Shown one piece after another: positions 2,436 through 42,241 of a DNA stretch of 64,000 nt. Position 1 is the stretch's first letter. Every line of letters begins with the position of its first letter. The DNA comes from Candidatus Levyibacteriota bacterium (GTDB lineage Bacteria; Patescibacteriota; Microgenomatia; Levybacterales; GWA1-39-11), in assembly GCA_036788695.1 (NCBI GenBank), contig DAIQMY010000001.1, positions 150,792-214,791 on the forward strand, read 5' to 3'. The translations under genes were made by a program, and so were the position numbers. The notes under the pieces are model-generated. The model was given only the letters and a program-made list of their open reading frames with translations, ran no database searches and was not told the DNA's origin.

Positions 2436-4424
2436 TCATTCATTATTCACCTTGTTGTTATCTGTAACAGGAGACGTAATAGGCTGTTGTGTAATTGGTT
2501 GAGATGCCTGTGGAGTAGGTTTCATAGCGGGTTGCGTTAGAGGCGCTTCTGTAGGAGGAGCTTCCTGTTTTGCGTCTGCTTCTTTTATGAATTGTTCTGC
2601 TGCCTGCGTATTTGTTCGTTCTGCCTCATCCAAAATGTCTTGAGGTTTAGAGGTGACCAGTTGATACTCAAAGTTTGATGCCAAAAATTGAGCTGTTAAG
2701 TGGTTTTGCCCTGCAAAAAAAAGTCCCTCTCCAACCTGCGCTGTTAGCAGAAATTGCTTTTCACCTTCTGATAAGTTAAGGGTTGAGGCGAGCGTTTCTA
2801 CCTCAGATGAGTTTTGTTTTAACAGGACCTGCATAGAAGAATTAGATAAGATTGCCTTGCCATAGTCGGAAGACAGGAAATCTTCTATGTCTTGGGTAAG
2901 CGTTGTAACTCCCAGGTAATATTTTCGTGCTCGCTTTGCAATTCCTTGCAAGAATGCAGCAGAGTCAGGATTTTTCATAAGATACCATGCCTCATCTACT
3001 ATTAATATACGTTTTTTCAATTTAGTTCTTACTCTGTTCCAAATAAAATCTAATATTACCTGCATGGCGACTGGCCTAAGAGATTCTTCAAGCTGTTTTA
3101 TTGAAAAAACGGTAAGTTGATTTTTAACATCGTAGTTAGTCTGTGAGTTTAATAGTCCTGAGAACCCTCCTTTGATGTACTTTTCTAGTCTAAACGCAAG
3201 GTCCTTGGCATCTGTTTCTTCCATATTCAAAAGTGTTTTATATAAATCCTCAAGAATGGGTGGTTCATTGCCAAAAGTTGATGGGTCAGGGATTATCCCT
3301 TTTTGCTTGTAACACAAAACGAGCGCGCGGTCTAAAATTGCCTCCTGTGTTGGAGAGAATTCACCAAGCATAATCTTGAGAAGTGAGTGGAGGGATAAAA
3401 ACTTTATTCCAAGCTGCGCTTCTGATCTGTCATCTGAAAGAAGGGCAAACGGATTAATTTTTACCTCAGAGTCTTTTGAAAAAGATATGTATTCTCCATC
3501 GAGCGCATGGCAGAGTGCTTTATATTCATCCTCAGGATCTATGATGAGAATTTCTGTGTCAAACATCATTTGACGCAACACCTCAAGCTTAACTAGAAAT
3601 GATTTTCCAGAACCAGATTTCCCAAAGACAACAGAATTTGCATTCTCAAATGAGAAGCGATCCACAATGATAAGTGAATTATTTAGCGTGTTTACTCCAT
3701 AAAAAATACCGTTTGGTTGAGATATTTCATAGGATGTGAAGGGAAACGTTGAGGCAACGGATGTAGTATCCATGTTTCGGGTAATAAATAATTTATCCTC
3801 CCCCAGGGGGAGTGTTGTTTTAAATCCGTCCTCCATTTGAAGAGTAGCGGGTTTTATAACCAGCAAGTTTGAGGCAAGTAGGGAAGTGAGTTCATTCGTT
3901 TTCTTATCAAGTTCATCAACTGTTTTTGCTGAAAGTGTAACATAGAGTCCAAATTGAAAGAATCGTTCAAGTCCCCGCGCTAACTCTTCACGCAGGGCGA
4001 TCGCGTCCTCAAGGGATGCTCGAACCTTAGGATCAGGTTCTATGCCGTTTTTCATATCTGATTCAATCGTTGCTTCCATTTCTCCAATTTTGCGTTTCAA
4101 ATTGGAAAGAATATCCCGACTTTCAACTGGGTATATAAACATAGATACGTTCATGGTTTCCTTGTAGTCTATAAGTATAGAAAGCCAATTTGGAGAAACT
4201 TCGCGCGGATAGTCAATTACAATAAACGTTCGGTAGAAAGCGTCTCCTACGCGAATATATTTAAAATCTACCTCAACGGATGAGGGAGCAAGAAGATCTA
4301 TCAGAGACACAGACCCACTTTTTAATTTCCCAACATCGTGTGTGATTTGAGGTTGTGGTGCAGATTGAGCTGTTTGTGCAGGTGCACTTTTTTCTGTTTG
4401 TTTTTTCTTTCCTAGTCCTAGCAT
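2436..4424 (-). CDS. virB4: VirB4/TrbE/CagE-family T4SS ATPase, C-terminal ATPase portion (662 aa)
   Basis: Walker A VVFGKSGSGKSF and Walker B RILIVDEAWYL (the DEAW motif is typical of VirB4). N-terminal stretch LIDLLAPSSVEVDFKYIRVGD...YPREVSPNWLSIL resembles the VirB4 middle region. Own RBS AAAGGAG 9 nt upstream of ATG. Confidence 0.8.
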   Translation of the reverse strand: MLGLGKKKQTEKSAPAQTAQSAPQPQITHDVGKLKSGSVSLIDLLAPSSVEVDFKYIRVGDAFYRTFIVIDYPREVSPNWLSILIDYKETMNVSMFIYPVESRDILSNLKRKIGEMEATIESDMKNGIEPDPKVRASLEDAIALREELARGLERFFQFGLYVTLSAKTVDELDKKTNELTSLLASNLLVIKPATLQMEDGFKTTLPLGEDKLFITRNMDTTSVASTFPFTSYEISQPNGIFYGVNTLNNSLIIVDRFSFENANSVVFGKSGSGKSFLVKLEVLRQMMFDTEILIIDPEDEYKALCHALDGEYISFSKDSEVKINPFALLSDDRSEAQLGIKFLSLHSLLKIMLGEFSPTQEAILDRALVLCYKQKGIIPDPSTFGNEPPILEDLYKTLLNMEETDAKDLAFRLEKYIKGGFSGLLNSQTNYDVKNQLTVFSIKQLEESLRPVAMQVILDFIWNRVRTKLKKRILIVDEAWYLMKNPDSAAFLQGIAKRARKYYLGVTTLTQDIEDFLSSDYGKAILSNSSMQVLLKQNSSEVETLASTLNLSEGEKQFLLTAQVGEGLFFAGQNHLTAQFLASNFEYQLVTSKPQDILDEAERTNTQAAEQFIKEADAKQEAPPTEAPLTQPAMKPTPQASQPITQQPITSPVTDNNKVNNE

Positions 4425-4463
4425 GTTTTACAATAACTCCTTTTTGTCGTATGTAGCGTATTT

Positions 4464-5078
4464 CTACACAATAATATTTTTAACGTCACTTGTTGAAAAG
4501 TCCACATTCATGCTTGTCTGGTTGAAAAGTTCAAAAAATACTCGTCCTAACTCTTCAGCCTTAATGACTCTACTGGAAAGCCCTATTCGTTCAATTTGCG
4601 TCATAACATTTGTTCTCTTGCTAGCTATTGCATCCGCGGTGCGTGCTTCGTGCGTCTTTTTACTGCCTCCTGATGTTGGCCCTAGCTCGAGCGCATTAAA
4701 TGGGATTACCACATATGTTTTTTTATCTAGCAGCCCATCTTCTTTTATAAGTTCCTGGATGAAATCCTTGTAGAGCCTTAAGTGCTCAGCCACTCGTGCG
4801 TTTTGGGTAACGGTAATTTTGTGATCAAGAGATGAGACATATGATGAGAGATCAATTCTTTTGGAAACTATCACAATCTGGATTGCAAAAGAGAGAGAAT
4901 TTAAAAGCGACATATACCCATATATACGCGCGTTTTGTTCGTCTTGGGAAAGAAGAAAAAAGTTAACAGATGAAACTTCCAGGATAGAGCATGCATTTTT
5001 TCCTTTTAAAAATACCGTGTCATCCCGAATATCTTCGATCTCAATAAAGGATTGTGTTGTCGATTTAATTTTAGCCAT
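4464..5078 (-). CDS. Stand-alone VirB4 N-terminal (CagE_TrbE_VirB-like) domain protein, 204 aa
   Basis: IEIEDIRDDTVFLKGKNACSILEVSSVNFFLLSQDEQNARIYGYMSLLNSL resembles the N-terminal domain of Gram-positive VirB4 homologs (PrgJ/TcpF/TraE type). Sits directly upstream of the ATPase part on the same strand, separated by a TAG stop and a 39-nt spacer containing an RBS. Confidence 0.5.
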   Translation of the reverse strand: MAKIKSTTQSFIEIEDIRDDTVFLKGKNACSILEVSSVNFFLLSQDEQNARIYGYMSLLNSLSFAIQIVIVSKRIDLSSYVSSLDHKITVTQNARVAEHLRLYKDFIQELIKEDGLLDKKTYVVIPFNALELGPTSGGSKKTHEARTADAIASKRTNVMTQIERIGLSSRVIKAEELGRVFFELFNQTSMNVDFSTSDVKNIIV

Positions 5079-5086
5079 GGGCAGTT

Positions 5087-6154
5087 TTATAAAGTATTTT
5101 GTGCAACTCCAAACAATTCACGTCTTAATTTTTCGCGTTGGTCTACAGATATTACTTGAATAGGTTGAGCCACTGATCCATCAAGCGTTATTCTGGTATC
5201 TTGAAACTCTTGTTTTTTTAACGTGTCCTCAAGGTGCAGGGTATATGTTCCGCTTGGAAGTGGAGTTGCGGCTCTAAAAAAACCATTTGCGTCAGTTCGG
5301 AAGGTTCGGAGTGGAACGTTTTGCGTATCAAGCACTTCCACAATGATGTGGGGGAGCGGTTTTCCTCTTGGGTCAAGTATTTTGCCTTGTAAAATATTGG
5401 CTATGTCTATGCCTCCTACAGATACTTGAGAGGGTGCCACTGGAGGGGTTATCGGTTGCGTTTCAGCTACTGCATGAGGCGTAGGAGGAACAATTTGTGA
5501 TTGAGAAGCAGAAGATTCTGTTTGGCTTGTACTTTCCTGAACAGGAGGGACTGAAGTTTCCGTATGGGGAGCAGATAATTCCCCAGACGTTCCTTCTTGC
5601 GTGTGTATGGCAGAGGCTTGCGTTGTGGGAGTTTTTTCATCGGCCTTAATAACTCTATTCGTAAATCCGCCCTGCTGTGTTGTGCCATCTTTGAAGAGGT
5701 TGCTCACGTTTTCTACTTGAGACTTCTCATCAGCATCAGGCTTAAAATAAGAACTTGCAAGCTGATTAAAAAGTTTTGCTTTTTGTACTGCTGCGCTGTC
5801 TCCTGAATTTGAGTCAGTAACGTTAGTGTGCGACGGAGGGGTAAATGTAAAGTATGGCATTTGTACTCCGTGTTTTTTGTAAATATATTGATTTTCCGCG
5901 GGAATTGCCTTAAAGAAGTTAAAAAGCATCTTATCCATAGGTCTTCCATCAATAGGCACAAACGCAAGACAAAGCCCTACGCCTCCTGAGAGAAGCATAA
6001 AGGGAAGCTTTAGTAAAAACGGAATGGGGAAAAAATAGAACAAGAGTGCAAAAACCCCGCCACCTAAAAGATATAAAAATTGTTTTACCGTAACAGATCC
6101 TATAAGCCTAAATTTAAACCCTGTAACGTCTTGGGGGATAGGATGATTTTCCAT
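5087..6154 (-). CDS. VirB3/PrgI-like small T4SS membrane protein fused to a long Ser/Thr/Pro/Gln-rich linker and a C-terminal transthyretin/carboxypeptidase-regulatory-like beta-sandwich domain
   Basis: N-terminal FKFRLIGSVTVKQFLYLLGGGVFALLFYFFPIPFLLKLPFMLLSGGVGLCLAF gives two TM helices in the VirB3/PrgI arrangement. Position immediately upstream of VirB4 in the conserved VirB3-VirB4 order. C-terminal GKILDPRGKPLPHIIVEVLD...GTYTLHLEDTL resembles a prealbumin-like fold. Confidence 0.4.
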   Translation of the reverse strand: MENHPIPQDVTGFKFRLIGSVTVKQFLYLLGGGVFALLFYFFPIPFLLKLPFMLLSGGVGLCLAFVPIDGRPMDKMLFNFFKAIPAENQYIYKKHGVQMPYFTFTPPSHTNVTDSNSGDSAAVQKAKLFNQLASSYFKPDADEKSQVENVSNLFKDGTTQQGGFTNRVIKADEKTPTTQASAIHTQEGTSGELSAPHTETSVPPVQESTSQTESSASQSQIVPPTPHAVAETQPITPPVAPSQVSVGGIDIANILQGKILDPRGKPLPHIIVEVLDTQNVPLRTFRTDANGFFRAATPLPSGTYTLHLEDTLKKQEFQDTRITLDGSVAQPIQVISVDQREKLRRELFGVAQNTL

Positions 6155-6402
6155 ATATTAAAGGGTATAACGTGAAACATATGCTTTCAAGATTATCAAA
6201 ATAGGTCAAAAAAAAGACATTCTGTGCGTAACGTGAAAAGCGCTGTGCTTTCTTGACACGCGCTTATGTTTTGCCGTACCATAAATAAAGAGAATGTTGT
6301 AAGCAGTTTGTTATTTTGTAGTTAAGAAGAATAGTGAAAAGAAGCCTATAATGCGAGTAAGATAATGATAAAAGAAATACTTTCTAAAATTATTTCATAA
6401 CT

Positions 6403-6741
6403 ATGGAATTTACACCGGAAAAGAAAAAAACAGTAGAGAAAATGATAGTTGATTCAATGATAGACGCTGTAGGGGCAGGAATTGTTCCTGAAGAAGAGCT
6501 TACTAGTATCTCTGATTTTGTTTTAGCTCGAATAGATGCCATAAACAATGAAGATGAATTGGTTATTTTTCTTGTTGAACTTTCTCAAAAATGGTCATTT
6601 TTCTTACCGATTGAACGCTTCATTGAAGGTGAGGCGAAAGAGGCGGAAGATAAAAAGTCAGTAGATAAAGCAGAAAATCTTATAAAGGATGGACAAATAG
6701 ATCAAGCGCTGCAGGTTTTAAAGGCAGCAGAGGGAGCATGA
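6403..6741 (+). CDS. Small acidic hypothetical protein (112 aa), translationally coupled to the next gene
   Basis: ORF with ATG start; its stop overlaps the start of the 645-aa ORF (6741/6743). Highly acidic composition. Confidence 0.45.
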   Translation: MEFTPEKKKTVEKMIVDSMIDAVGAGIVPEEELTSISDFVLARIDAINNEDELVIFLVELSQKWSFFLPIERFIEGEAKEAEDKKSVDKAENLIKDGQIDQALQVLKAAEGA

Positions 6742-6742
6742 T

Positions 6743-8680
6743 ATGACAAAGAATATACAAACAGAGGCAGCAGCGCGTGCCATAACAAATAGAACAGAGC
6801 TAACTCCGGCTGAGCAGCAAGATAAACAAAAACAGCTCGCAGCAGGTGCTGCAAAAAGAAGTCTTGAAAAAAGACGTGAGGCCCTGGGTGGAGACGACCA
6901 TGGCTTTATGGAGGGAATGAGGAGTACAAAAAAAGAGACACTTGATGTGCCAACCGCAGATGATGCAGAGAAGGTAATTGAATCAGCCGCCAATACTCCT
7001 GAACAAAAAAGCGAAGCAAAAAAAATAGACGCAGTTTTGCGAGCAGTATTCTCAGGAGATAAAGCCTATCTTGAGGAACATCAGAATGCAACAAGTGACT
7101 CGTTAATTGCTCCTATTCGTGAAATGATGAGAAGGGACCCTGCCTTCAAAGAACTAGCAGATGCGATTGACAATAGTCCTGCTTCTTTCAATGAATGGGT
7201 TCAATTTGTGGCAGAGCAGTTAGATTCGGGGCGTAATCCAGGGGATAACAGGTTTGTGGACAATCTTCAGGCAAAGTATAAATCGTTTATGGAGAAGGAC
7301 AGAGAGGAATCGGGGGATAAGACGGCAATTCGAAGAAAGCTTGATATGCAAAAAGCAAAAGAAGACGCGCTAAACGATCAGTATCAGGCAAATATAAAAG
7401 AAGTTGAAGAAAATCGAGCACGAAAAGAATCTTTTTCTGATATGGATAACGGTGCGGGAAAAGAATTAAAGGAGATAACTGATACGGTTGCTAGTGAGGC
7501 TGAAGATCGGAAGCGGATAGAGGAGGAGATTGCGGAATTAAGAGTTGATAAAGCAAGAGTAGATGAAGATGCGCATAGCACTAATTTGTCAATAAGAAGA
7601 GAAGCCGAGCAAACACTGCGTCGATTGAGGACGAATATTTCTGATAAAGAAAAAGAGCTTGCCCCATTTAAAAAAAATATTGTTAAAAAAGAATCATTGA
7701 CTTCTGAAATGAAAGGATTAAATAATACGCACGAAAAACTTTTGCAAGATCAAGGAAGTCTTGCAACTCAAATTGAAACGATTCGTGAGGAGCGAACAAA
7801 GATAGAGAAACAATTAAATATCGGAGGCGGTAAGGATAAGGAGGACTTCGTAGGGGACCTGCGAGCTATTATGGGTGATGCTTTTCGGGACACTATGATT
7901 GCCAGATTTGATGCACAGCAGGCAGGCGTTAGTGAATCCTTTAAGGAGCTTATTGCGGAAGCACGCGATCCTCACGTTAAGGCAGCACTGGAGCAGCTGC
8001 AAGATAGTCATAATCGTTGGAAGGATTGGGATTCGGTCTGGAAAACAAAGCTGAAGGTTCCTTATGGTCGCAAGGAAGAGCCAAGTATGCAAAAGGATCT
8101 TATGAAGGAAGATGTAGACATTTTGCTTAAAGAGGGTCCTGAGAGTTTTATGAGAAGATTTCTTAGCCACAAGATGGATCCGGATACGAAAAACGCAGGT
8201 AATCCTCAGGGAATGATGTACTCTAAAGAAAAGATAGACGAACTCATTTCAGATAAAGACTTTATGGCTGCGGTACAGCCAAAGGCTGCCGGGTTATTAG
8301 TTCGCCAGGCAGTACAGACAAACGTATTGTCTGAGCGTCAAATGGCTGAGTTGAGAGATACAGAATGGGGAATGAGTGCGATTGAAAGTGCGCTGATGTT
8401 GGATAAGACTGCAGTTGAGAGCGGTAGAGCGCATCAGGCAATAGACTACATAAAGAAGCATCCAAAATTTGCGTGGTGGATGCTTCTTACGTTTTTATGG
8501 CCACCAGCAGGATTATTCGTTGCGGGAGTATACGCAGGTAAAGAGGTTGTGTCTGGAGTATTTCCGGGTAAAAATAAAGAGCATGCCGGAGGGCATGATA
8601 AAAAGCCTGTGAATGTTGAGCCTCCTCCATCACCTCACAATGAGCAGCAGTTTGCGCCTAGCCTCGCACCTGCGCATTAA
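6743..8680 (+). CDS. Large charged coiled-coil protein (645 aa) with a hydrophobic segment near the C-terminus (HPKFAWWMLLTFLWPPAGLFVAGVYAG); unknown function
   Basis: Long ORF with K/E/R/D/Q-rich, helical-looking sequence and a C-terminal TM helix. No recognisable catalytic motif. Confidence 0.55.
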   Translation: MTKNIQTEAAARAITNRTELTPAEQQDKQKQLAAGAAKRSLEKRREALGGDDHGFMEGMRSTKKETLDVPTADDAEKVIESAANTPEQKSEAKKIDAVLRAVFSGDKAYLEEHQNATSDSLIAPIREMMRRDPAFKELADAIDNSPASFNEWVQFVAEQLDSGRNPGDNRFVDNLQAKYKSFMEKDREESGDKTAIRRKLDMQKAKEDALNDQYQANIKEVEENRARKESFSDMDNGAGKELKEITDTVASEAEDRKRIEEEIAELRVDKARVDEDAHSTNLSIRREAEQTLRRLRTNISDKEKELAPFKKNIVKKESLTSEMKGLNNTHEKLLQDQGSLATQIETIREERTKIEKQLNIGGGKDKEDFVGDLRAIMGDAFRDTMIARFDAQQAGVSESFKELIAEARDPHVKAALEQLQDSHNRWKDWDSVWKTKLKVPYGRKEEPSMQKDLMKEDVDILLKEGPESFMRRFLSHKMDPDTKNAGNPQGMMYSKEKIDELISDKDFMAAVQPKAAGLLVRQAVQTNVLSERQMAELRDTEWGMSAIESALMLDKTAVESGRAHQAIDYIKKHPKFAWWMLLTFLWPPAGLFVAGVYAGKEVVSGVFPGKNKEHAGGHDKKPVNVEPPPSPHNEQQFAPSLAPAH

Positions 8681-8699
8681 GGAAAAGTGGGAAGTATGA

Positions 8700-9056
8700 T
8701 TAGAGTTTCTCTTCTGTTTTCGGAGGACTTGTGAGTTGGTTTAAGTCAACGCCCGTGAATTGAGACAAAAGGTTTATCATGACAAATGACATCATGATAA
8801 TAACTAGCCCAATAATTGCATAGGTAAGTCTTTTTCTGGCATTGTCCACTTTTTCTTTATCCCCTGAAGACGTTACATATTGGTAGCCTGAGTAAATGAT
8901 AAGAAATACGGCAACTACGCCGGATAGGACTAGTGCTGCATTAATTACATTTTGTAAGACAATCCATATGCAGGATATGGTAGCTACTCCTGTTGCATCT
9001 GGAATTCCCTCCAATGGTCTTACACATTCTCCCCAATCTTCTGTGAATAAATCCAT
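8700..9056 (-). CDS. T4SS pilin-like small membrane protein (VirB2/TrbC-type, T4SS_pilin family), paralog 3
   Basis: Two hydrophobic helices flanking the loop YVTSSGDKEKVDNARKRLTYAIIGLVII. The same architecture and motif recur in three neighbouring genes. Confidence 0.6.
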   Translation of the reverse strand: MDLFTEDWGECVRPLEGIPDATGVATISCIWIVLQNVINAALVLSGVVAVFLIIYSGYQYVTSSGDKEKVDNARKRLTYAIIGLVIIMMSFVMINLLSQFTGVDLNQLTSPPKTEEKL

Positions 9057-9121
9057 GTGCTATTAGCATAAAACAAATGTGAAAGATAATTCAAGAGGAA
9101 AGGTGTAAGTAGGCACCGTAC

Positions 9122-9577
9122 TTATTGGCTAGTATTCCGAAGTGTAGGTATTTCAAACCCAGAAGTAAGGTAATTACCGGTAAAGATGTAAAGGACTGCG
9201 TTTATGATAACGTAGGCTAATATAACTATGATAAGTCCTACAATTGCTGCAACTATTGTAGAGCGTGCAGTATCAATTTTTCCTTTATCTCCGCCTGAAA
9301 GAATCCATCGAACGCCTCCATACAAAAGGAAAATAAGGGATAAAACAATTCCGATAATTATAATAGCGTTTATAATAAAAGCAATCAGTTGATTTGGTGA
9401 CACGTCAATATTCCCGATTGATTTAGGTGACTTAATTATTATAGGTTCAATATTCTGAGCAAATGCAGGGGTCGCTAGAACGGACATAAGAAGTGAGCCA
9501 AATGATACTGAGGCGGTATTTATTATTTTTTGCAAACTCATATGATTAATTAGAACATGTTTTTTTTTGCATGTCAA
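9122..9577 (-). CDS. T4SS pilin-like small membrane protein, paralog 2, with an N-terminal Sec-type signal peptide
   Basis: Core IFLLYGGVRWILSGGDKGKIDTARSTIVAAIVGLIIVIL. The track start at 9577 is TTG. An in-frame ATG at 9541 gives MSLQKIINTASVSFGSLLMSVLATPAFA-QN, a classic signal peptide. Confidence 0.6.
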   Translation of the reverse strand: MTCKKKHVLINHMSLQKIINTASVSFGSLLMSVLATPAFAQNIEPIIIKSPKSIGNIDVSPNQLIAFIINAIIIIGIVLSLIFLLYGGVRWILSGGDKGKIDTARSTIVAAIVGLIIVILAYVIINAVLYIFTGNYLTSGFEIPTLRNTSQ

Positions 9578-9583
9578 TAAGCG

Positions 9584-9913
9584 TTATTGTTTTCCTATGT
9601 CTTGTAGGACTTGCGCGCCCAGGAGTAAGCCCACAATTCTTACAATGATAAAGGATAGGAGGATAATAATAAGCCCTACTATTGCGTACGTGATAGTGCG
9701 TCTTGCGCGGTCCAGTTTTGCCTTATCTCCTTGAGACGTAATCCATAAAACTCCCGCGTATAAAAGAAAAATAAGAGACGCAATAATGCCTATGGTAACG
9801 AACAGTCCTAATCCGAAGTTAATAATATCAGATGGGGCGTTTGCGCCTGATGGGATATTTTCAGGTGTTTGCACGTCTCCATATCCGGGTATTTTTAAAG
9901 ATAAGTATTTCAT
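9584..9913 (-). CDS. T4SS pilin-like small membrane protein, paralog 1
   Basis: Core IFLLYAGVLWITSQGDKAKLDRARRTITYAIVGLIIILL. Its ATG directly abuts the stop of the upstream pilin-like frame (TAATATG). Confidence 0.6.
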   Translation of the reverse strand: MKYLSLKIPGYGDVQTPENIPSGANAPSDIINFGLGLFVTIGIIASLIFLLYAGVLWITSQGDKAKLDRARRTITYAIVGLIIILLSFIIVRIVGLLLGAQVLQDIGKQ

Positions 9914-10401: not shown

Positions 10402-11557
10402 TTAAGTCCCGGCCGTCTTTAATTTTAAGAAGATATTTTCCTTCTGTAAGGGTTCCAAATACATATCCGTCGGCATCTTTTGATTCTGAACTGAGGAACA
10501 TATCTATCTCTCCTGTTCCATCTTCGGGTTTGGGGTTTGCGTTTACAACTAAGCATCTAGGCGCACTCTTGTAATCATTATCCAACCCTTCAACCTGTAG
10601 CCAATAATCATTATAAATATTTGAGTCCTTGCCTGATTTTATGTTTCTACCTTTTAAAATAATGGGTAGGGTGAATCCATTTTTTGTACTATTTGTATTT
10701 AGATTTGTGACAGTTTCCGCTTTTGGCTTTATAATCTCAGGGTAAAAGTGAGTTACGTAAAATACCGCATCCGCCTTTACATCATCAGGGCTTACGCTTT
10801 TACTATCTTTCCCCTGCGATAAATATACATGGTATGTTTTTCCTGCGTGAAACCAATCTCCAGAAGTGAACTGATTCGTTTCAGTACAGTCTTCTTTAAG
10901 TGTTTTTTCTCCATCCCCACACAACTTGCTTAGTATAACTATTCCGTCTCTTGGTTGCGCTTCTTGCCAGTCATCCTCCCCACAATCTTGAGGTTTACTT
11001 TTGAGGCAGTAGAAATATTTTGCGTTTTTAGTAGGATTGGAAAGATTAATAAATCGAACAGAAATATAAGGAACGCTTTCATCTATAAATGCTTGATTCG
11101 TTTTTGGATTTTTTGGAAGTCCTCTTGTTGCGCCCAGTCCCTTACAGATATAGTAAGATTCAGTAGTAATGCAGTCACTCAGGTTTGGATTATTAACTTC
11201 ATCTAAAAATCTGTCTTCGTCAGTTTTTCCCTCCTCGTTTGCACATGTACTTTCTGTAAAAAGAGTTGAATCATCAATTGTAATGGTAGATGTTCCTAAA
11301 GGTTTTTGTATTTTGCGATTTTGTGCCGGAATATCAAAGTACCTGCATAAATTTGTGCAGATATTGTCATCAGGGGGGACAAATGAGATGTCCTTTAAGG
11401 GCACTTCTTTCCCTTTAATAGTTTTAGTTACCAATTTTTGGGAAGAACATTCGCTTAGGTCTTGTCCGCTGAATTGAACACCCGTGGCGTATGTTGTAGC
11501 TGTTGTGAAAATTAAAAATAAGAAGAAGACAGGCAATAGCAGGAAAGTTTTCTTCAT
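10334..11557 (-). CDS. Secreted Cys-rich protein (about 407 aa from the internal ATG; the track ORF starts at a TTG at 11593); candidate pilus-associated adhesin
   Basis: Signal peptide MKKTFLLLPVFFLFLIFTTATTYATG. Numerous Cys residues suggest disulfide-rich extracellular domains. The 3' end contains the A8 tract (plus-strand T run 10396-10403) where a -1 shift joins the downstream pilin frame. Confidence 0.55.
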   Translation of the reverse strand: MKKTFLLLPVFFLFLIFTTATTYATGVQFSGQDLSECSSQKLVTKTIKGKEVPLKDISFVPPDDNICTNLCRYFDIPAQNRKIQKPLGTSTITIDDSTLFTESTCANEEGKTDEDRFLDEVNNPNLSDCITTESYYICKGLGATRGLPKNPKTNQAFIDESVPYISVRFINLSNPTKNAKYFYCLKSKPQDCGEDDWQEAQPRDGIVILSKLCGDGEKTLKEDCTETNQFTSGDWFHAGKTYHVYLSQGKDSKSVSPDDVKADAVFYVTHFYPEIIKPKAETVTNLNTNSTKNGFTLPIILKGRNIKSGKDSNIYNDYWLQVEGLDNDYKSAPRCLVVNANPKPEDGTGEIDMFLSSESKDADGYVFGTLTEGKYLLKIKDGRDLKKMETLLPANKTISPTTLFRLQ

Positions 11558-25525: not shown

Positions 25526-25972
25526 ATGAAAATTTTTAATAAACAAGCACCAGGAAATTTTAATGTTGAAGAGAGATATGAGGCGGGAATTGTTCTTCAG
25601 GGTCAAGAGGTGAAAGCCATAAAATTAGGGCATGCGGATCTAACCGGATCATACGTAAAACTTTTGGGATCTGAGGCGTATCTTATAAATTCCCGTATAT
25701 TCCCTTATGAATATGCGCGAGCGCAAGGTTATCAAGAGACAAGAACTAGAAAATTATTACTTCATAAAAAAGAATTATTAAAGTTAAAAAATAAACTTTC
25801 TGAAGGGAAACATACTTTAGTTGGTCTTTCTCTTTATGATACGAAAACAGGACTTGTAAAGATAGAGATTGGGCTTTCAAAAGGGAAAAAGAAACATGAG
25901 CGGGAAAAGGACGTAAGGCGCAGAGAATTAGACCTGCAATCCGAAAGGGAGTTTAAAGAAAAAAACTACTAG
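25526..25972 (+). CDS. smpB: SsrA-binding protein SmpB
   Basis: EAGIVLQGQEVKAIKLGHADLTGSYV and overall SmpB-like sequence. The tmRNA gene lies immediately downstream. Confidence 0.9.
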   Translation: MKIFNKQAPGNFNVEERYEAGIVLQGQEVKAIKLGHADLTGSYVKLLGSEAYLINSRIFPYEYARAQGYQETRTRKLLLHKKELLKLKNKLSEGKHTLVGLSLYDTKTGLVKIEIGLSKGKKKHEREKDVRRRELDLQSEREFKEKNY

Positions 25973-26058: not shown

Positions 26059-26459
26059 GGGGATGCAATGCATCGACAGGAATTGCTCTTTTACAACTGC
26101 AAGCCGGCGATGGTTCACAGCCGTAAAATAGGACCAAAAATACACGGTAAGTTTAATCTTACCCAGGGTCTCAAACGCGTTTTCGCGGATAGAGACATGT
26201 TTAAAGTAGGGCAACCTGCTTTTAACTTCGCTTAATAGCGCCTTGCTTACGCCCTTTCTTTTCTTAACGGATAAGCGTAGGTAAAAACCTTGTTAAGATA
26301 GGATTCAAGAAGTGATTAAACTTGAATTAGAAAAATTAGATCTTGGAACTGTTTCCCCTGTCAATTGGGTCAGAAATAGTTCGACAACAAAAAATTGACT
26401 ACGCTTGTAGATGTTTTAAAAAGTAGTTTTTGGACGGGAGGTCAAACTCCCCATCTCCA
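26059..26459 (+). ncRNA. ssrA: tmRNA (ssrA), about 401 nt, one-piece
   Basis: 5' GGGGATGCAATGCATCGACAGG (tRNA-like 5' end). 3' GGACGGGAGGTCAAACTCCCCATCTCCA (T-arm plus acceptor strand complementary to the 5' GGGGATG). Candidate tag ORF GCG GAT ... GCT TAA TAG (26185-26238) encodes ADRDMFKVGQPAFNFA followed by a double stop. Confidence 0.75.
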
Positions 26460-26466
26460 CACTTTA

Positions 26467-29263: not shown

Positions 29264-31018
29264 CTACTGTTTTTCGACGTTATAGAGAGGTCCTACTATC
29301 TGCAGGTTTGCGGGTGCACGAAGGTTGAAGTATGTTTTAAAGTCCGCAGCAGAAAATGTTTTTGATCCACCGTCTCCGTTAAAGGTTATGGAAGTGGTTC
29401 TTCCGCTTCCTTTATCCCAATCAACTGATGCGCCTGACACTGAATTAAATGGTGTACCACCCCTACTTGAAAGTTCCTGTCTCACGCGTGCCGCATCCCA
29501 CGTTTCAGTCCCGGCGGGATTTGGTTTATCAGGTTGGTATAGATGTTCGTGAGTGCTTGAATCTTTTTGTGCAAGCATTAAAACATTCACTATATCTCCC
29601 ACTTCCTCACTCTTCATCCACGCGGTACCACTATAAGCACTTCTTGATCCCCAGTCACAGTAAAACCACGGAGATGCCTTATCATAGGCGCTATTTTTTA
29701 AGTCATCAAATGAATTTATTGTGTCTGTGGTTGTGTCTTTTGCATTTTTTGTATATGGGGTACTATTCCATCCGATATCACTTGATGTGTAAACGTACCC
29801 TCCATGTGTTGATGAGAACCATGCTTTAATTGGATTGCCTCCATTTGTGAGGACTTGTCCTGCTGTTGCATTCACAGCGTCTATCCAGGATTGAGCATTG
29901 AGCTCTTTTTTAACAACTTGGCATGATTGAGAAGGACAGATAGTGCCGCTGCCATTATTTGTATAGGCAAGAGCATATGAGCGTGCGGCTATAGCTTGAG
30001 CCTTTAATGCTTCAGATGGCCAGCCTGACGGTACTTCGTAAACATGCTTAACATATTCTTCTATATTCCATGTATCATCAAATGATTGACCATATTCATT
30101 TGTCCCCGTAACATGAATGGATGCTCCCTGATTATATCCAGATGTGAGATCGGCATTATAATATGATTTTAATATCTGCTCTGCGTTCTGTCCCGCCTCA
30201 GCCCTTCCCTTAGCTCCATATTGATTTAGTCCAACTCTGTTTGGTACCCCAAAAGTAAAAAATCCAAAACGGGGAGAAAACCCAGGATCTTTACCATTTG
30301 TTAAGTCAGAAGAGCACCCTCCACCAATTCCCGCGTATGCTGATTGGGGAATGTTTAAGCTCGCAAGTCTTTGTGACAAAATAGACTGTTGCTTTGCTGA
30401 AAGTTCAGCAATCTGTGAGGTAAGGGTTGCTTGATATGCACGTGCACCGTCCACTAATTTTTGTACATCTGCCTTTTGTGTATCAACCTGTTTTTTTATT
30501 GAGGCGAGCTTTACTTGTTCTTCCTCGAGCGCTTTTTTTCGATCCTCAAGATCAATTATTTTTAATGCAATTGATGTAATAATTGCTTTATCTTCATCTT
30601 GACCTTTTTTTTGGTATGCAATTATTTTCGTTGCGTCTTGCGCGTCTTTTGATGATAAAAATATAAGCAAAGGAGAGAATACATAATTTTTTATGTAATA
30701 GTCACGTACTGCTTTGTTAAAAACAGCTCGCTGTTCCCCTAAATCTATATAGCCCTGGGCAATGTTTTTTTTCTTTTCAGCAATATCTGATTCAATGCCG
30801 ACAACTTGGGCGGTTATTGCGTCCAACTGTTTTTTCATGCTTACCAATTGTGATTCAAACGGAGCTGTTGCGCGTTGAGATGATGAGAGTGAACTTTGGA
30901 GCTCCGCAATTTTACGGCTAATATCATCAAGCTCATCAGAATATGCTTGGGATTTTATAAAAAAGATTGAAGAAATTAAAAAAAGGATAACTACAACAAG
31001 ACTTAAAAGTTTTCTCAT
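29264..31018 (-). CDS. SpoIID/LytB-domain peptidoglycan hydrolase with signal peptide and N-terminal coiled coil
   Basis: EEYVKHVYEVPSGWPSEALKAQAIAARSYALAY closely matches the SpoIID signature (EEYL.GVVP.EMP.SWP.EALKAQAVAARTYAL); GLNQYGAKGRAEAGQNAEQILKSYY matches a second SpoIID motif. Confidence 0.75.
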   Translation of the reverse strand: MRKLLSLVVVILFLISSIFFIKSQAYSDELDDISRKIAELQSSLSSSQRATAPFESQLVSMKKQLDAITAQVVGIESDIAEKKKNIAQGYIDLGEQRAVFNKAVRDYYIKNYVFSPLLIFLSSKDAQDATKIIAYQKKGQDEDKAIITSIALKIIDLEDRKKALEEEQVKLASIKKQVDTQKADVQKLVDGARAYQATLTSQIAELSAKQQSILSQRLASLNIPQSAYAGIGGGCSSDLTNGKDPGFSPRFGFFTFGVPNRVGLNQYGAKGRAEAGQNAEQILKSYYNADLTSGYNQGASIHVTGTNEYGQSFDDTWNIEEYVKHVYEVPSGWPSEALKAQAIAARSYALAYTNNGSGTICPSQSCQVVKKELNAQSWIDAVNATAGQVLTNGGNPIKAWFSSTHGGYVYTSSDIGWNSTPYTKNAKDTTTDTINSFDDLKNSAYDKASPWFYCDWGSRSAYSGTAWMKSEEVGDIVNVLMLAQKDSSTHEHLYQPDKPNPAGTETWDAARVRQELSSRGGTPFNSVSGASVDWDKGSGRTTSITFNGDGGSKTFSAADFKTYFNLRAPANLQIVGPLYNVEKQ

Positions 31019-31078
31019 GGGAGTAATAATAATAACAATTTTTACCTATGCTTACAACCCGGGGAAGGAGGTTGTGGG

Positions 31079-31150
31079 TGGGCGCGGCAGGATTTGAACC
31101 TGCGACCAATTGTGTATAAGACAACCGCTCTACCACTGAGCTACACGCCC
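31079..31150 (-). tRNA. tRNA-Ile with anticodon UAU (decodes AUA), 72 nt
   Basis: Reverse complement GGGCGTG-TA-GCTC-AGTGGTA-GAGC-G-GTTGT-CTTATAC-ACAAT-TGGTC-GCAGG-TTCAAAT-CCTGC-CGCGCCC-A. Clean cloverleaf with a 7-bp acceptor stem, U33, anticodon TAT, A37 and discriminator A. Confidence 0.7.
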
Positions 31151-31205
31151 AAAAACGAAACTGTGGTAAATTATAGCACGAGAAAGGTAAATATTCGATT
31201 CGTAA

Positions 31206-33638
31206 TTATACAAGGCCGCCGTTGCCGCCACCTAGTTTATCTTCTCCCGGGTTACCAAATGGGTCCTCACCGCCAGGGCCCAGGTCACCAAACACCTCAA
31301 AGAGTTTAGATCGTTTTGCAATTTCTGCTTCTACCAATTCCTTGGGTTTTCCGTACTTTAGTCTGGATAATTCTTTAACTAGTTCAGCGACCCGAGGGTT
31401 TGCCATCCTTCGTTCTGCTTCAATATCCCGTGTAAGATCCATTGAAAATGGGGGAGCTGGTTCATTTTTTATAACAGTTTTTACATAAGCGTGACGAGCT
31501 TCAATATTTATTAAATCAGCTTCGGTAAAGGTAGGTTGGAATTCATGCTGAAGATAATTTGCGTCAGATACACCTACTCGGAAGGATACAATGGTTCCAA
31601 CATTTCCAAAGATAGCATTTTTAATTTCCTCTTCAATCTGTCCTATGAACTGGTTTGCAACTATCAAGTTCAATCTATATTTTCTTGCCTCAGAGAGTAT
31701 TTGTGCAAAATCAGGTGTTGCAAAGTTTTGGAACTCGTCAACATAGAGGAAAAAATCGCGTCTTTGTTCTTGTGGAATATCTTGTCTACTCATGGCAGCA
31801 ACGAGTATTTTAGGAACGAGTATAAGCCCAAGAAAGTTTGAGTTTTCTTCACCTATTTTCCCTTTGGCAAGAGAGATAAGAAGAATTTTACCCTCATCCA
31901 TTGAGCGTCTAAAATTAAAGGAGGAATCAGATTGACCAATCATATTTCTCATCATAGTGTTTGTAACAAATCGTCCAAATTTTGAGGTAATATAATCCAG
32001 TACTTCAGATTTATGAAAATCTGATGTCTGAGCAATCTGGTCAGTCCAGTAACGTCTAATAATAGGATCTTTTACTTTGGGAAGAAGTTCTTGAACAAAA
32101 TTTTGATCAGTTAAAACACGCATAACCTCTACAAAGGTGTTCCCTGGCTCCGACATAACAGTAAGCATAGCGTTTCTTACAGCGTGTTCAAATCGAGGTC
32201 CTATGATACCTGTTTGGTGTGGGTCAAAGAGTTTATACATGAGCCCTATAATAGATGTTACAACCAAATGTTTTTGTTCTTCGGTTTGTGCTTCAAGCAT
32301 GTTTAACCCCATGGGGCGTTCTGTGTCTGATGGGTCAAAAAGTATTACGTCTTCCGCGCGTTCAGGTGGGATAAGCGGTAAGATTAAGTCTATTGTGTCA
32401 TGAGGATCAATAAAGCAAACTCCGTGACCGGCCTTAATATCTTGCAGTATCATATCTTTTAGAAATTCAGACTTTCCGACCCCCGTTTTTCCAACTATAT
32501 ACATATGCCGTCTCCTGTCATCTTCTCCTATGTATATAGGCTTGGAATTTCCTCTGTATTCACTTTTCCCTATGTAGAGTCCGGTTGTTGGAATACTTGC
32601 GGGCGCAGGCGCGCTGCGGGCAGCCAACCAGTGGATATGTGGGCTTTCAACTGATTTATTTGGAAAGTGGAAAATAGTTGCGAGTTCATCAACTGAAAGT
32701 ACAGAACCTTTCTTCAGAAGAGGGAGCGTTCTGTAGATAAAATCCACCATGAACATCCCTTTAAAATACTTCATTTTTTCCTTGGAGAAAGAATTATATG
32801 AGGAGAATTGTGTAAATGAGGTCACCATATTTTCTAAGTGCGCATTTGCTGCTTCTTTTGAGGAAGATGAGACAACAAGTCTAATATAGGTATTAAATGC
32901 GGGTTTTGACAGTTTTCCTTCAATTGCTTCTAGTTCTTTTTGGTCGACTGAATATTTTGCTGTCTCAGGATTTGCTTCTCGTTTTTTAATACCGGTGATA
33001 TGTGCTCTCCCTTGCTTTTTCCATTTCCCGTCAGTAGGGGTGATAAGTATTTGAATAGCAGCAGACTCCCCTTCCTGCATTTTTCCAAGAGTTGAAACCA
33101 TAGTTGACATTGGATCAACAGGAAGTTGCTGAAATGACTTGATCGGGATATAAGGCGAAGACTTAAGAACCAGTCCTGCAAATGCTACCTTGCTTTCATC
33201 CGTAAAAATATCATATTCCTCAGCAGGTGAAATGTTTGCGTCGGGATATGCTCCGTGGATTTGTTTCTCAACCATATCCTCCAATTTTTTAGGAATTGAT
33301 ACATAAAACCTGATATCTCCTGGTTTTGCGACTATTTCAAACGCGATATAATCAGGTACTTTTGAAAATCCAAGTAGTCCTTTTGCGCCTTTTATTCCAG
33401 AAAAGGCTGAAAACATTTGTTCTGCTGCATCTATCTTTATCTCATTTTCGCGAGGTAGCTGTACCTCAAGCAAGACCATATCAAGAGCCTTTTTCTGTCT
33501 TTCTCGGTTTTTTTTCCAGAAAAGATAAGCAATATACGCTCCTAGGACCGCAAACACAATTATGCTGGTGAGAAGAATCCCTATTGCAAGAACAAAAAGA
33601 AGCGTGATGATGTTGTTTACTACGTCTATTCCTGTCAT
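31206..33638 (-). CDS. VirD4/TraG/TraD-like type IV coupling protein candidate (membrane-anchored P-loop ATPase, 810 aa)
   Basis: N-terminal TM region. Walker A HMYIVGKTGVGKSEF. Walker B FFLYVDEFQNFA (the DEFxN motif is typical of T4CPs). Followed by ARKYRLNLIVANQFIGQI, which is like the T4CP xxQSxxQL motif. HerA/FtsK-like alternatives cannot be excluded from sequence alone. Confidence 0.5.
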   Translation of the reverse strand: MTGIDVVNNIITLLFVLAIGILLTSIIVFAVLGAYIAYLFWKKNRERQKKALDMVLLEVQLPRENEIKIDAAEQMFSAFSGIKGAKGLLGFSKVPDYIAFEIVAKPGDIRFYVSIPKKLEDMVEKQIHGAYPDANISPAEEYDIFTDESKVAFAGLVLKSSPYIPIKSFQQLPVDPMSTMVSTLGKMQEGESAAIQILITPTDGKWKKQGRAHITGIKKREANPETAKYSVDQKELEAIEGKLSKPAFNTYIRLVVSSSSKEAANAHLENMVTSFTQFSSYNSFSKEKMKYFKGMFMVDFIYRTLPLLKKGSVLSVDELATIFHFPNKSVESPHIHWLAARSAPAPASIPTTGLYIGKSEYRGNSKPIYIGEDDRRRHMYIVGKTGVGKSEFLKDMILQDIKAGHGVCFIDPHDTIDLILPLIPPERAEDVILFDPSDTERPMGLNMLEAQTEEQKHLVVTSIIGLMYKLFDPHQTGIIGPRFEHAVRNAMLTVMSEPGNTFVEVMRVLTDQNFVQELLPKVKDPIIRRYWTDQIAQTSDFHKSEVLDYITSKFGRFVTNTMMRNMIGQSDSSFNFRRSMDEGKILLISLAKGKIGEENSNFLGLILVPKILVAAMSRQDIPQEQRRDFFLYVDEFQNFATPDFAQILSEARKYRLNLIVANQFIGQIEEEIKNAIFGNVGTIVSFRVGVSDANYLQHEFQPTFTEADLINIEARHAYVKTVIKNEPAPPFSMDLTRDIEAERRMANPRVAELVKELSRLKYGKPKELVEAEIAKRSKLFEVFGDLGPGGEDPFGNPGEDKLGGGNGGLV

Positions 33639-34172: not shown

Positions 34173-34253
34173 GCATCCATGATATCACCTATGCATTCTT
34201 TTGGCAATTTCACAAACCTAACAGAAGAGTAACAAGATGAAACGAGTAATATG

Positions 34254-34345
34254 CGGAGGAGACAGGATTTGAACCTGCGCGAGCCTGTTTAAGGGGCTCA
34301 GGGGGTTAGCAACCCCCCGCAATGGACCAACTATGCGACTCCTCC
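34254..34345 (-). tRNA. tRNA-Ser (anticodon GCU), class II with long variable arm
   Basis: Reverse complement GGAGGAG-TC-GCA-TAGTTGGTCCAT-TGC-G-GGGGG-TTGCTAA-CCCCC-(variable arm GAGCC...GGCTC)-GCAGG-TTCAAAT-CCTGT-CTCCTCC-G. Confidence 0.85.
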
Positions 34346-34411: not shown

Positions 34412-34496
34412 GGAGAGGTCGCATAGTGGTCTAGTGCAGCGGTTTACTAAACCGCCGTATCGCAAGATACCGAGAGTTCGAATCTCTCCCTCTCCG
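34412..34496 (+). tRNA. Class II Ser-type tRNA with apparent anticodon ACU (atypical); paralog of the tRNA-Ser(UGA) at 35456
   Basis: GGAGAGG-TC-GCA-TAGTGGTCTAG-TGC-A-GCGGT-TTACTAA-ACCGC-(variable arm GTATC-GCAA-GATAC)-GAGAG-TTCGAAT-CTCTC-CCTCTCC-G. The 5-bp GC-rich anticodon stem forces a TTACTAA loop, giving positions 34-36 as ACT. Confidence 0.55.
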
Positions 34497-34519
34497 CATT
34501 ATTATAATTCTCTTCTTTT

Positions 34520-35455: not shown

Positions 35456-35542
35456 GGAGAGGTCGCATAGTGGTTTAGTGCGAAGGTCTTGAAAACCTTT
35501 ATGGGGGAAACCTCATCGGGGGTTCGAATCCCCCCCTCTCCG
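35456..35542 (+). tRNA. tRNA-Ser (anticodon UGA), class II
   Basis: GGAGAGG-TC-GCA-TAGTGGTTTAG-TGC-G-AAGGT-CTTGAAA-ACCTT-(variable arm)-GGGGG-TTCGAAT-CCCCC-CCTCTCC-G. Confidence 0.85.
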
Positions 35543-35650
35543 CATAAGGTCGTTGATGTGCCAAGCTTGGCTGTGAAATAACGGAAATCCTATTGATTTG
35601 TTCTGTCTCCTCTGTTAAGAATTTATTAATTTCTCAATACCAAAAAAATT

Positions 35651-41498: not shown

Positions 41499-41960
41499 AT
41501 GTTAAATTTTTTGAAGATATCATTTCCTTATGCTGTAGCTCATGCCCACTGTGATATTCCCTGTGGAATATACGACCCAAACGGTGCCCAGTTAGCGGCG
41601 CATACTGTGCTTAGGATGACACAGTTACTATCTGAGAAAACTGAGACCCATGACGTAGCAAGAATTACTCATGTTAAAGAGGAACATGGTGAGGCAATTG
41701 AAGAAGAGTTGGGTACGCTTGAAAATGATTATTTTAAACCAGAACACTTTGAGCAATTTCCGGAATTAAAAGGTCTTCTTTCTGATTCAGTGAAGTTATC
41801 TATTGAAACCCGGCAGCACATAGATATTCAAAAAGCTGAAGAGCTACTTGAGAAAGTCTTACAAATTTCAGAGATATTTTATAAAACAAAGAATGTAACT
41901 CCAGTAAGGGTTTCTTCTGTTTATCCAACAAAAGGAGAGATTGTAGCCTATACCGCATGA
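41499..41960 (+). CDS. sodN: Nickel-containing superoxide dismutase precursor (NiSOD)
   Basis: Leader MLNFLKISFPYAVAHA followed by HCDIPCGIYDP, the Ni-hook (His1, Cys2, Cys6 of the mature protein). Confidence 0.85.
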   Translation: MLNFLKISFPYAVAHAHCDIPCGIYDPNGAQLAAHTVLRMTQLLSEKTETHDVARITHVKEEHGEAIEEELGTLENDYFKPEHFEQFPELKGLLSDSVKLSIETRQHIDIQKAEELLEKVLQISEIFYKTKNVTPVRVSSVYPTKGEIVAYTA

Positions 41961-42241
41961 TTCTAGGTATCTTCAAAATAACAGGTCACAGTATGGAGCC
42001 TACGATTAAAAATGGTGATAGTGTTCTTGCGGTGGGCATGTTTTCCATCAAAAAAGGGGATGTGATTGTATTCCAGAATGACTCTAAATATTTTGTAAAG
42101 CGGGTAGCCGCAATAATTGGGGATAAGGTGAAAGTTTTAGGAGATAACCCGGAAGATAGTTTTGACAGCCGTAATTTTGGAGAAATTGAAAAAGATGTTA
42201 TTATTGGGAAAGTAATAAAAAAATTTAAATGGTTTTTTTAA
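41957..42241 (+). CDS. sodX: NiSOD maturation peptidase SodX (S24/S26 signal-peptidase-like)
   Basis: GHSMEPTIKNGDSVL catalytic Ser motif. Overlaps the sodN stop (ATGA). Confidence 0.75.
   Translation: MILGIFKITGHSMEPTIKNGDSVLAVGMFSIKKGDVIVFQNDSKYFVKRVAAIIGDKVKVLGDNPEDSFDSRNFGEIEKDVIIGKVIKKFKWFF

Follow-up and report, generated by a model that had tools for sequence, protein, structure and literature searches.

Introduction

Telling AUA from AUG is a classic weak point of the genetic code, and lysidine, the product of TilS, is regarded as an essential and nearly universal part of the bacterial solution, and it has been considered as a drug target. Within a 64-kb stretch of Levybacteria DNA (hereafter the window), a first-pass annotation reported a tRNA-Ile gene whose UAU anticodon is encoded directly in the genome. 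The locus raises the question of whether this gene is real, whether it reads AUA as isoleucine, and whether the cells that carry it have any use for lysidine.

A tRNA-Ile gene with a genomic UAU anticodon

Both Rfam model RF00005 and ARAGORN bear out the call of a tRNA-Ile with a UAU anticodon, at precisely the coordinates of the first-pass annotation and on the minus strand, which had been left unstated (Table 1). The Rfam match spans the full length of the model with maximal posterior ('*') at all positions, and its score of 76.6 bits (E 4.8e-15), set against a gathering score of 29, argues against the pseudo-tRNA with a poor covariance score that the annotation had allowed for. ARAGORN reports tRNA-Ile(tat) on the same strand with slightly wider limits (31075..31151), as one of four tRNA genes in the window.

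The sense sequence of the gene is GGGCGUGUAGCUCAGUGGUAGAGCGGUUGUCUUAUACACAAUUGGUCGCAGGUUCAAAUCCUGCCGCGCCCA, and by segment its RNA reads GGGCGUG, UA, GCUC, AGUGGUA, GAGC, G, GUUGU, CUUAUAC, ACAAU, UGGUC, GCAGG, UUCAAAU, CCUGC, CGCGCCC and A. The anticodon loop is C32 U33 U34 A35 U36 A37 C38; the discriminator base A73 is followed by CCCACAACC, and the CCA end is not encoded in the gene. C34, the trait that marks the canonical tRNA-Ile2 (CAU) as a TilS substrate, is absent, with T at position 34 of the window gene and of every orthologue described below. U35, the corresponding trait of tRNA-Lys(UUU), is also absent, with A at position 35 of the window tRNA.

Table 1. Features of the window around the tRNA-Ile(UAU) gene
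Feature	Coordinates	Strand	Basis or remark
T4SS-like cluster	2436..9913		
VirB4/TraG P-loop ATPase of the cluster	2436-4424		
PrgI-family gene of the cluster	5087-6154		
Three T4SS-pilin genes of the cluster	8700-9913		
smpB	25526..25972	plus	
tmRNA gene	26059..26462	plus	Rfam, 105.8 bits
SpoIID-domain protein, 584 aa, downstream neighbour	29264..31018	minus	Pfam
Sigma-70-like promoter site	31057..31029	minus	Simple scan
tRNA-Ile(UAU), 72 nt	31150..31079	minus	Rfam RF00005 and ARAGORN
Anticodon U34 A35 U36 (TAT)	31118..31116	minus	ATA on the plus strand; ARAGORN, sequence, Rfam
DUF8128 / TraG-VirD4-like P-loop ATPase, 810 aa, upstream neighbour	31206..33638	minus	Pfam matches
tRNA-Ser(GCU)	34253..34345	minus	
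tRNA-Ser(ACU)	34412..34497	plus	Rfam, 54.6 bits
tRNA-Ser(UGA)	35456..35543	plus	
Sod_Ni (nickel superoxide dismutase) gene and the peptidase gene after it	41499..42241		

The gene is conserved across Levybacteria

To place the gene in its lineage we used an alignment of the neighbouring ATPase to fetch 80 related loci with 6-kb flanks, one per species, from GTDB species-representative genomes. ARAGORN finds tRNA-Ile(tat) adjoining the ATPase gene in 73 of these 80 Levybacteria loci, at a median distance of 74 nt. Six of the seven remaining loci are uninformative because the contig stops 5-380 nt past the ATPase protein match; in the seventh (L040), 6 kb of downstream sequence contains neither a tRNA-Ile(UAU) nor an intron-split copy of one.

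Trimmed to the tRNA, the 73 orthologous genes comprise 64 distinct sequences. All 64 share the hexanucleotide CUUAUA at positions 32-37 and A73, and all four stems vary. RNAalifold, applied to 44 of the 64, recovers the cloverleaf, and 18 of its 21 stem pairs have undergone compensatory double changes. With its invariant loop and covarying stems, the gene is functional and selected for its exact anticodon, and the same features in the orthologues rule out a chance match, a pseudogene or a recent mutation. As judged from these alignments, tRNA-Ile(UAU) is held by strong purifying selection at a syntenic position throughout the clade.

The elements by which E. coli IleRS recognizes its tRNAs are A73, A37 as the t6A site, U12-A23, C4-G69 and C29-G41. 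All 44 aligned sequences have A73 and A37, and 43 of them have U12-A23. C-G is found at 4-69 in just 31 of the 44, and the 29-41 pair is variable; the list used for this comparison was drawn up for the E. coli enzyme (Nureki 1994, cited in PMC3575796) and may not transfer to CPR bacteria.

AUA is a frequent codon and means isoleucine

AUA usage had been proposed as a check on the gene, and the codon turned out to be used heavily: ATA accounts for 32.0 per 1000 codons and 39% of isoleucine codons in the window (53 ORFs, 18,829 codons), and is also found in rpsT and smpB. The 80 related loci have a median of 21.4 per 1000 (28% of isoleucine codons; range 3.8-35.4), the window species is the one with the highest usage among the compared loci, and AUA makes up 2-3% of codons in Levybacteria. 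A 2025 survey (PMC12514573) classes anything above 10 per 1000 as 'high' and gives Borrelia burgdorferi, at 39 per 1000, as its top value.

The meaning of the codon was read from the ATPase gene in 81 genomes, where an alignment column counted as isoleucine if 80% or more of the other sequences carry that residue. Of 510 uses of ATA, 479 fall in isoleucine columns, 15 in valine and 10 in leucine columns, and none in methionine or lysine columns. ATA thus occupies conserved isoleucine positions and never methionine or lysine ones, which establishes, at the level of aligned codons, that AUA is translated as isoleucine in Levybacteria. Taken with its conservation, the UAU gene is the normal AUA-reading route in this group of CPR bacteria, and it is ancient and clade-wide.

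The lysidine route

A search of all six reading frames for TilS-like ORFs with an SGGxDS PP-loop motif came up empty in both the window and the 80 related loci, and three Pfam-annotated contigs lack any PF01171 protein within ±10 kb. The 38 CAU tRNAs in the related loci, which in many of them lie a few kb away, are either initiator-like, with C1 opposite A72, or resemble the E. coli elongator metT; none is Ile2-like, in approximately 1.2 Mb of Levybacteria DNA that represents a single syntenic region and so cannot show genome-wide absence of tilS or tRNA-Ile2(CAU). A scan for the KMSKS motif turned up no ileS, either in the window or among the fetched related loci.

A broader view is offered by Meheust et al. 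2019 (PMC6744442), whose Supplementary Data 1 has just one family with the annotation tRNA(Ile)-lysidine synthase (K04075, PF01171). It occurs in 123 CPR and 866 non-CPR bacterial genomes and is listed as 'depleted'; the text of the paper is silent on TilS. These counts amount to ~5% of CPR against ~73% of non-CPR genomes, in a table that counts CPR as a whole and covers only 921 'widespread' families, so that a divergent, CPR-specific TilS family could be missed. For scale, ribosomal protein S10 is counted in 2138 CPR and 1054 non-CPR genomes and a class-I synthetase family in 2302 and 1182. Two enzymes of U34 modification are in the same table, MnmG/GidA with 5 CPR against 897 non-CPR genomes and MnmA with 1495 against 948. 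Levybacteria could be among the 123 TilS-bearing CPR genomes. Loss of the TilS route in this lineage is indirectly supported by these data.

The foremost alternative is redundancy, in which the genome would also possess TilS and a tRNA-Ile2(CAU->LAU) and the UAU tRNA would add capacity for a heavily used codon, a role proposed for it in Lactobacillus casei and some cyanobacteria. Double systems are on record in L. casei and Cyanothece (PMC3575796), and a TilS family does occur in those 123 CPR genomes. However, the UAU gene occurs sporadically among the known double systems, whereas here it is present at nearly every species locus with an invariant anticodon loop, and the low frequency of TilS in CPR genomes and the syntenic region devoid of TilS-like ORFs and Ile2-like tRNAs also argue against it. 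We consider redundancy unlikely, and favor a model in which tRNA-Ile(UAU) is probably the main AUA decoder of a genome that lacks tilS.

Two side observations emerged from these scans. The initiator-like tRNA(CAU) of Levybacteria is only 69-70 nt long. Its D arm, GUAGUGUACAGUGCAC, is unusual, and its T loop reads GCGCAAC where the canonical form is UUCRANY. This tRNA is found at L032 11348-11417 and L033 13888-13957, in L041, L043, L050 and L053 and in others, usually as a divergent pair with an elongator tRNA-Met. Separately, positions 10516..10653 of L040 give a sub-threshold match to a T-box leader (33 bits against a gathering score of 93), located between a tRNA-Met-like gene and a class-I aminoacyl-tRNA synthetase ORF with a KMSKS motif.

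A proposed decoding mechanism

That the gene encodes a real and functional tRNA that decodes AUA as isoleucine is, in our judgment, nearly certain. We envision direct pairing of U34 with the A in the third position of AUA, which would make the lysidine step unnecessary; because position 34 is U and not C, lysidine would have no part in the process. In this scheme tRNA-Ile(UAU) would do most, and probably all, of the AUA decoding in the cell, and we think it likely that in Levybacteria it reads AUA without TilS and is probably alone in doing so.

A37, following U36, is the usual site of t6A. The state of U34 can be narrowed by the distribution of its modifying enzymes. An xm5U-type modification seems unlikely because MnmG is depleted in CPR. 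MnmA substrates have U35, and MnmA-type thiolation of this U34 is for that reason also unlikely. Since CPR bacteria are largely without TilS and MnmG, U34 would most likely be either unmodified, similar to the situation in Mycoplasma mobile, or carry a non-xm5 modification; whether it is in fact unmodified we regard as evenly balanced. In M. mobile U34 is unmodified, Arg865 of IleRS (Trp905 in E. coli) permits charging, and the ribosome itself was shown by experiment to reject AUG (Taniguchi et al. 2013, PMC3575796). With such a U34 in Levybacteria, both the avoidance of AUG misreading and charging by IleRS would likewise have to depend on properties of IleRS and the ribosome. The known solutions on the enzyme side are Arg or Lys in place of E. 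coli Trp905, or a eukaryote-type IleRS2.

A bolder proposition, which we put forward tentatively and with less than even confidence, is that Levybacteria, and perhaps much of the Microgenomates or CPR, have abandoned lysidine and read AUA through tRNA-Ile(UAU) alone. If true, an uncharacterised means of stopping U34 from reading AUG would be required in cells without MnmG, with a new U34 modification, or an adaptation of IleRS or the ribosome distinct from that of M. mobile, as the candidates; textbooks, which credit almost all bacteria with lysidine, would then be wrong about a large share of bacterial diversity.

Relation to known AUA decoders

The canonical tRNA-Ile2(CAU->LAU) likewise reads AUA and not AUG, and the bodies of the Levybacteria tRNAs have a mean identity of 71% to its E. 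coli representative ileX; unlike it, they carry U34 in all 64 distinct sequences and lysidine cannot form. [quoted passage not shown] The eukaryotic tRNA has a pseudouridine-A-pseudouridine anticodon, in which U34 is converted to pseudouridine. N. equitans resembles the CPR in being an ultra-small episymbiont, but belongs to another domain of life.

The closest parallels are bacterial. M. mobile shares with Levybacteria the genomic UAU anticodon, a small AT-rich genome, frequent AUA codons and an A37 available for t6A, and TilS is absent there and probably absent here. In contrast, M. mobile is one species with a recent loss of tilS within the Mollicutes, while the Levybacteria gene has become fixed in 73 or more species of a candidate phylum, and it is for M. 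mobile that an unmodified U34, the role of IleRS Arg865 and ribosomal rejection of AUG were demonstrated by experiment. In Bifidobacterium and Neorickettsia, which have IleRS2, a eukaryote-type IleRS, tRNA-Ile3(UAU) replaces tRNA-Ile2(CAU) clade-wide (PMC3575796; PMC8450103), as the UAU tRNA probably does in Levybacteria. Finally, a suppressor of tilS deletion in Bacillus subtilis, tRNA-Ile1(G34U), illustrates that a UAU anticodon can sustain life without TilS (Fabret 2011; Koehrer 2014, PMC3919564); it is a laboratory derivative of tRNA-Ile1, whereas the Levybacteria gene is natural, ancient and clade-wide.

The first-pass annotation called a genomic UAU anticodon rare. Among cultured bacteria this stands: in 2013 tRNA-Ile(UAU) without TilS was known from nine species in three clades (PMC3575796), tRNADB-CE has it in 19 species, the tRNAscan-SE 2.0 survey lists it for Bifidobacterium, Mycoplasma and Neorickettsia, 17 complete genomes in all (PMC8450103), and a 2026 preprint still refers to 'rare cases'. 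In the present lineage it does not, given the near-constant presence of the gene at the species loci. Taniguchi et al. also described 371 unique metagenomic tDNA-Ile(TAT) sequences of unknown origin (PMC3575796), for which CPR bacteria are a plausible source. We found no literature that links CPR with lysidine, tilS or Ile(UAU), in a search that left most subscription journals outside its reach.

Our findings most likely represent a new, lineage-wide instance of TilS-independent AUA decoding, a mechanism that is itself not new. The interest lies in scale: tRNA-Ile(UAU), hitherto a curiosity of a few genomes, is here fixed across a whole candidate phylum, and perhaps far beyond it, in which AUA is a major codon. 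The fixed UAU gene, together with the depletion of TilS and MnmG in CPR, suggests that decoding of AUA without lysidine is widespread in nature. The 64 natural variants offer material for studying how a modified or unmodified U34 avoids AUG. There is also a practical consequence, since such genomes will look less complete than they are to annotation pipelines that look for a tRNA-Ile2(CAU) and for tilS as a marker.

Gene neighbourhood

The upstream ATPase, part of the conserved Levybacteria core, was our synteny anchor. Its homologues are 67-89% identical, those with names belonging to Candidatus Levybacteria or the 'Patescibacteria group', and among the 80 species the identity is 64-99%. A search of genome contigs with the ATPase returned 570 relatives, and two GTDB species-representative contigs match the window at 99% identity, including one (L009) labelled Candidatus Levyibacteriota. 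These matches place the window in Candidatus Levybacteria, within the Microgenomates of the CPR/Patescibacteria. The window encodes other proteins typical of CPR/Patescibacteria, among them DUF8128, DUF5657 and DUF5667 proteins, T4SS pilins, PrgI, a VirB4-like ATPase, SpoIID, ComF, and SmpB with tmRNA, the smpB gene being followed directly by the tmRNA gene.

According to the first-pass annotation the tRNA is embedded in a protein-coding operon. In the window there are 55 nt between the ATPase stop and the tRNA and 60 nt from the tRNA to the start of the SpoIID ORF, all on the minus strand. A simple scan placed a sigma-70-like promoter site between the tRNA and the SpoIID ORF and found no terminator around the tRNA. 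In the relatives, however, the tRNA shares the strand of the ATPase in 56 of 73 loci and lies opposite to it in 17, which implies that it must be transcribable independently. The tRNA is a conserved neighbour of the ATPase, and the operon link is weak, being purely positional and not obligate.

The same surroundings bear on a second alternative, that the tRNA is the cargo or attachment site of a conjugative element or prophage. The ATPase has TraG-D_C and TrwB matches, a VirB4/PrgI/T4SS-pilin cluster lies elsewhere in the window, and phages often carry tRNA-Ile(UAU), with tRNA-Ile(tat) calls among the phage tRNA arrays of IMG/VR. Yet the ATPase belongs to the core genome and its flanks (SpoIID, SmpB, ComF, tRNA-Ser) are conserved, GC content is flat over the region, the tRNA diverges in step with host genes, a pattern scan of IMG/VR gave only GAT and CAT tRNAs from phages and no relative of tRNA-Ile(UAU), and no att repeats, integrase or patchy distribution among close relatives were seen. 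We regard a mobile origin as highly improbable.

The tRNA-Ile(tat) genes in the IMG/VR phage arrays, which hold 20-36 tRNAs, are unusually long at 91-94 nt, possibly owing to an intron or a long variable arm (L002 7128-7218, L003 12052-12142, L005 10205-10298). One of these contigs, L005, also encodes tRNA-Thr(agt), and another phage contig, L006, carries tRNA-Gly(acc) and a suppressor tRNA(tta). Within the window, 21 kb separate the DUF8128 VirD4/TraG-like ATPase beside the tRNA from the T4SS-like cluster, and the gene after Sod_Ni encodes a short S26/S24-type peptidase, probably the maturation protease of the dismutase. Many Levybacteria MAGs in GTDB are titled 'uncultured Gammaproteobacteria' or 'uncultured Pseudomonadales bacterium', which we take to be placeholder or wrong labels on the basis of their 64-99% identical core ATPase and shared synteny.

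Ancestry of the tRNA

At 86% identity, E. coli K-12 lysT, our reference for tRNA-Lys(UUU) (L092 1555-1630), is closer to the window tRNA than are ileX (74%), metT (72%) and ileV (69%). The corresponding family means are 72.5%, 71.4%, 69.8% and 69.0%. An origin through recruitment of a tRNA-Lys gene by a U35A change is possible on these figures. LysRS requires U35. The last alternative, that this tRNA-Lys-like body, near-identical to lysT in anticodon stem, variable loop and T arm, is charged with lysine or that AUA has taken on another meaning, such as methionine, is the least probable of all, since A35 excludes recognition by LysRS, the resemblance to tRNA-Lys vanishes across the family, and the ATPase columns that hold ATA are overwhelmingly isoleucine and never lysine or methionine.

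The tRNA-Ser genes near the ATPase include a further oddity. Anticodons that start with A are very rare in bacteria outside Arg, Leu and Thr, and the window has a tRNA-Ser(ACU), with A34, beside tRNA-Ser(GCU) and tRNA-Ser(UGA). tRNADB-CE has three entries with such anticodons for Ser. The gene is also found in L008, L009, L016 (1999-2084) and L024 (4813-4898), while 76 of the 80 related loci are without it. With three species-level lineages, covarying stems and an invariant UUUACUAA loop, it looks functional.
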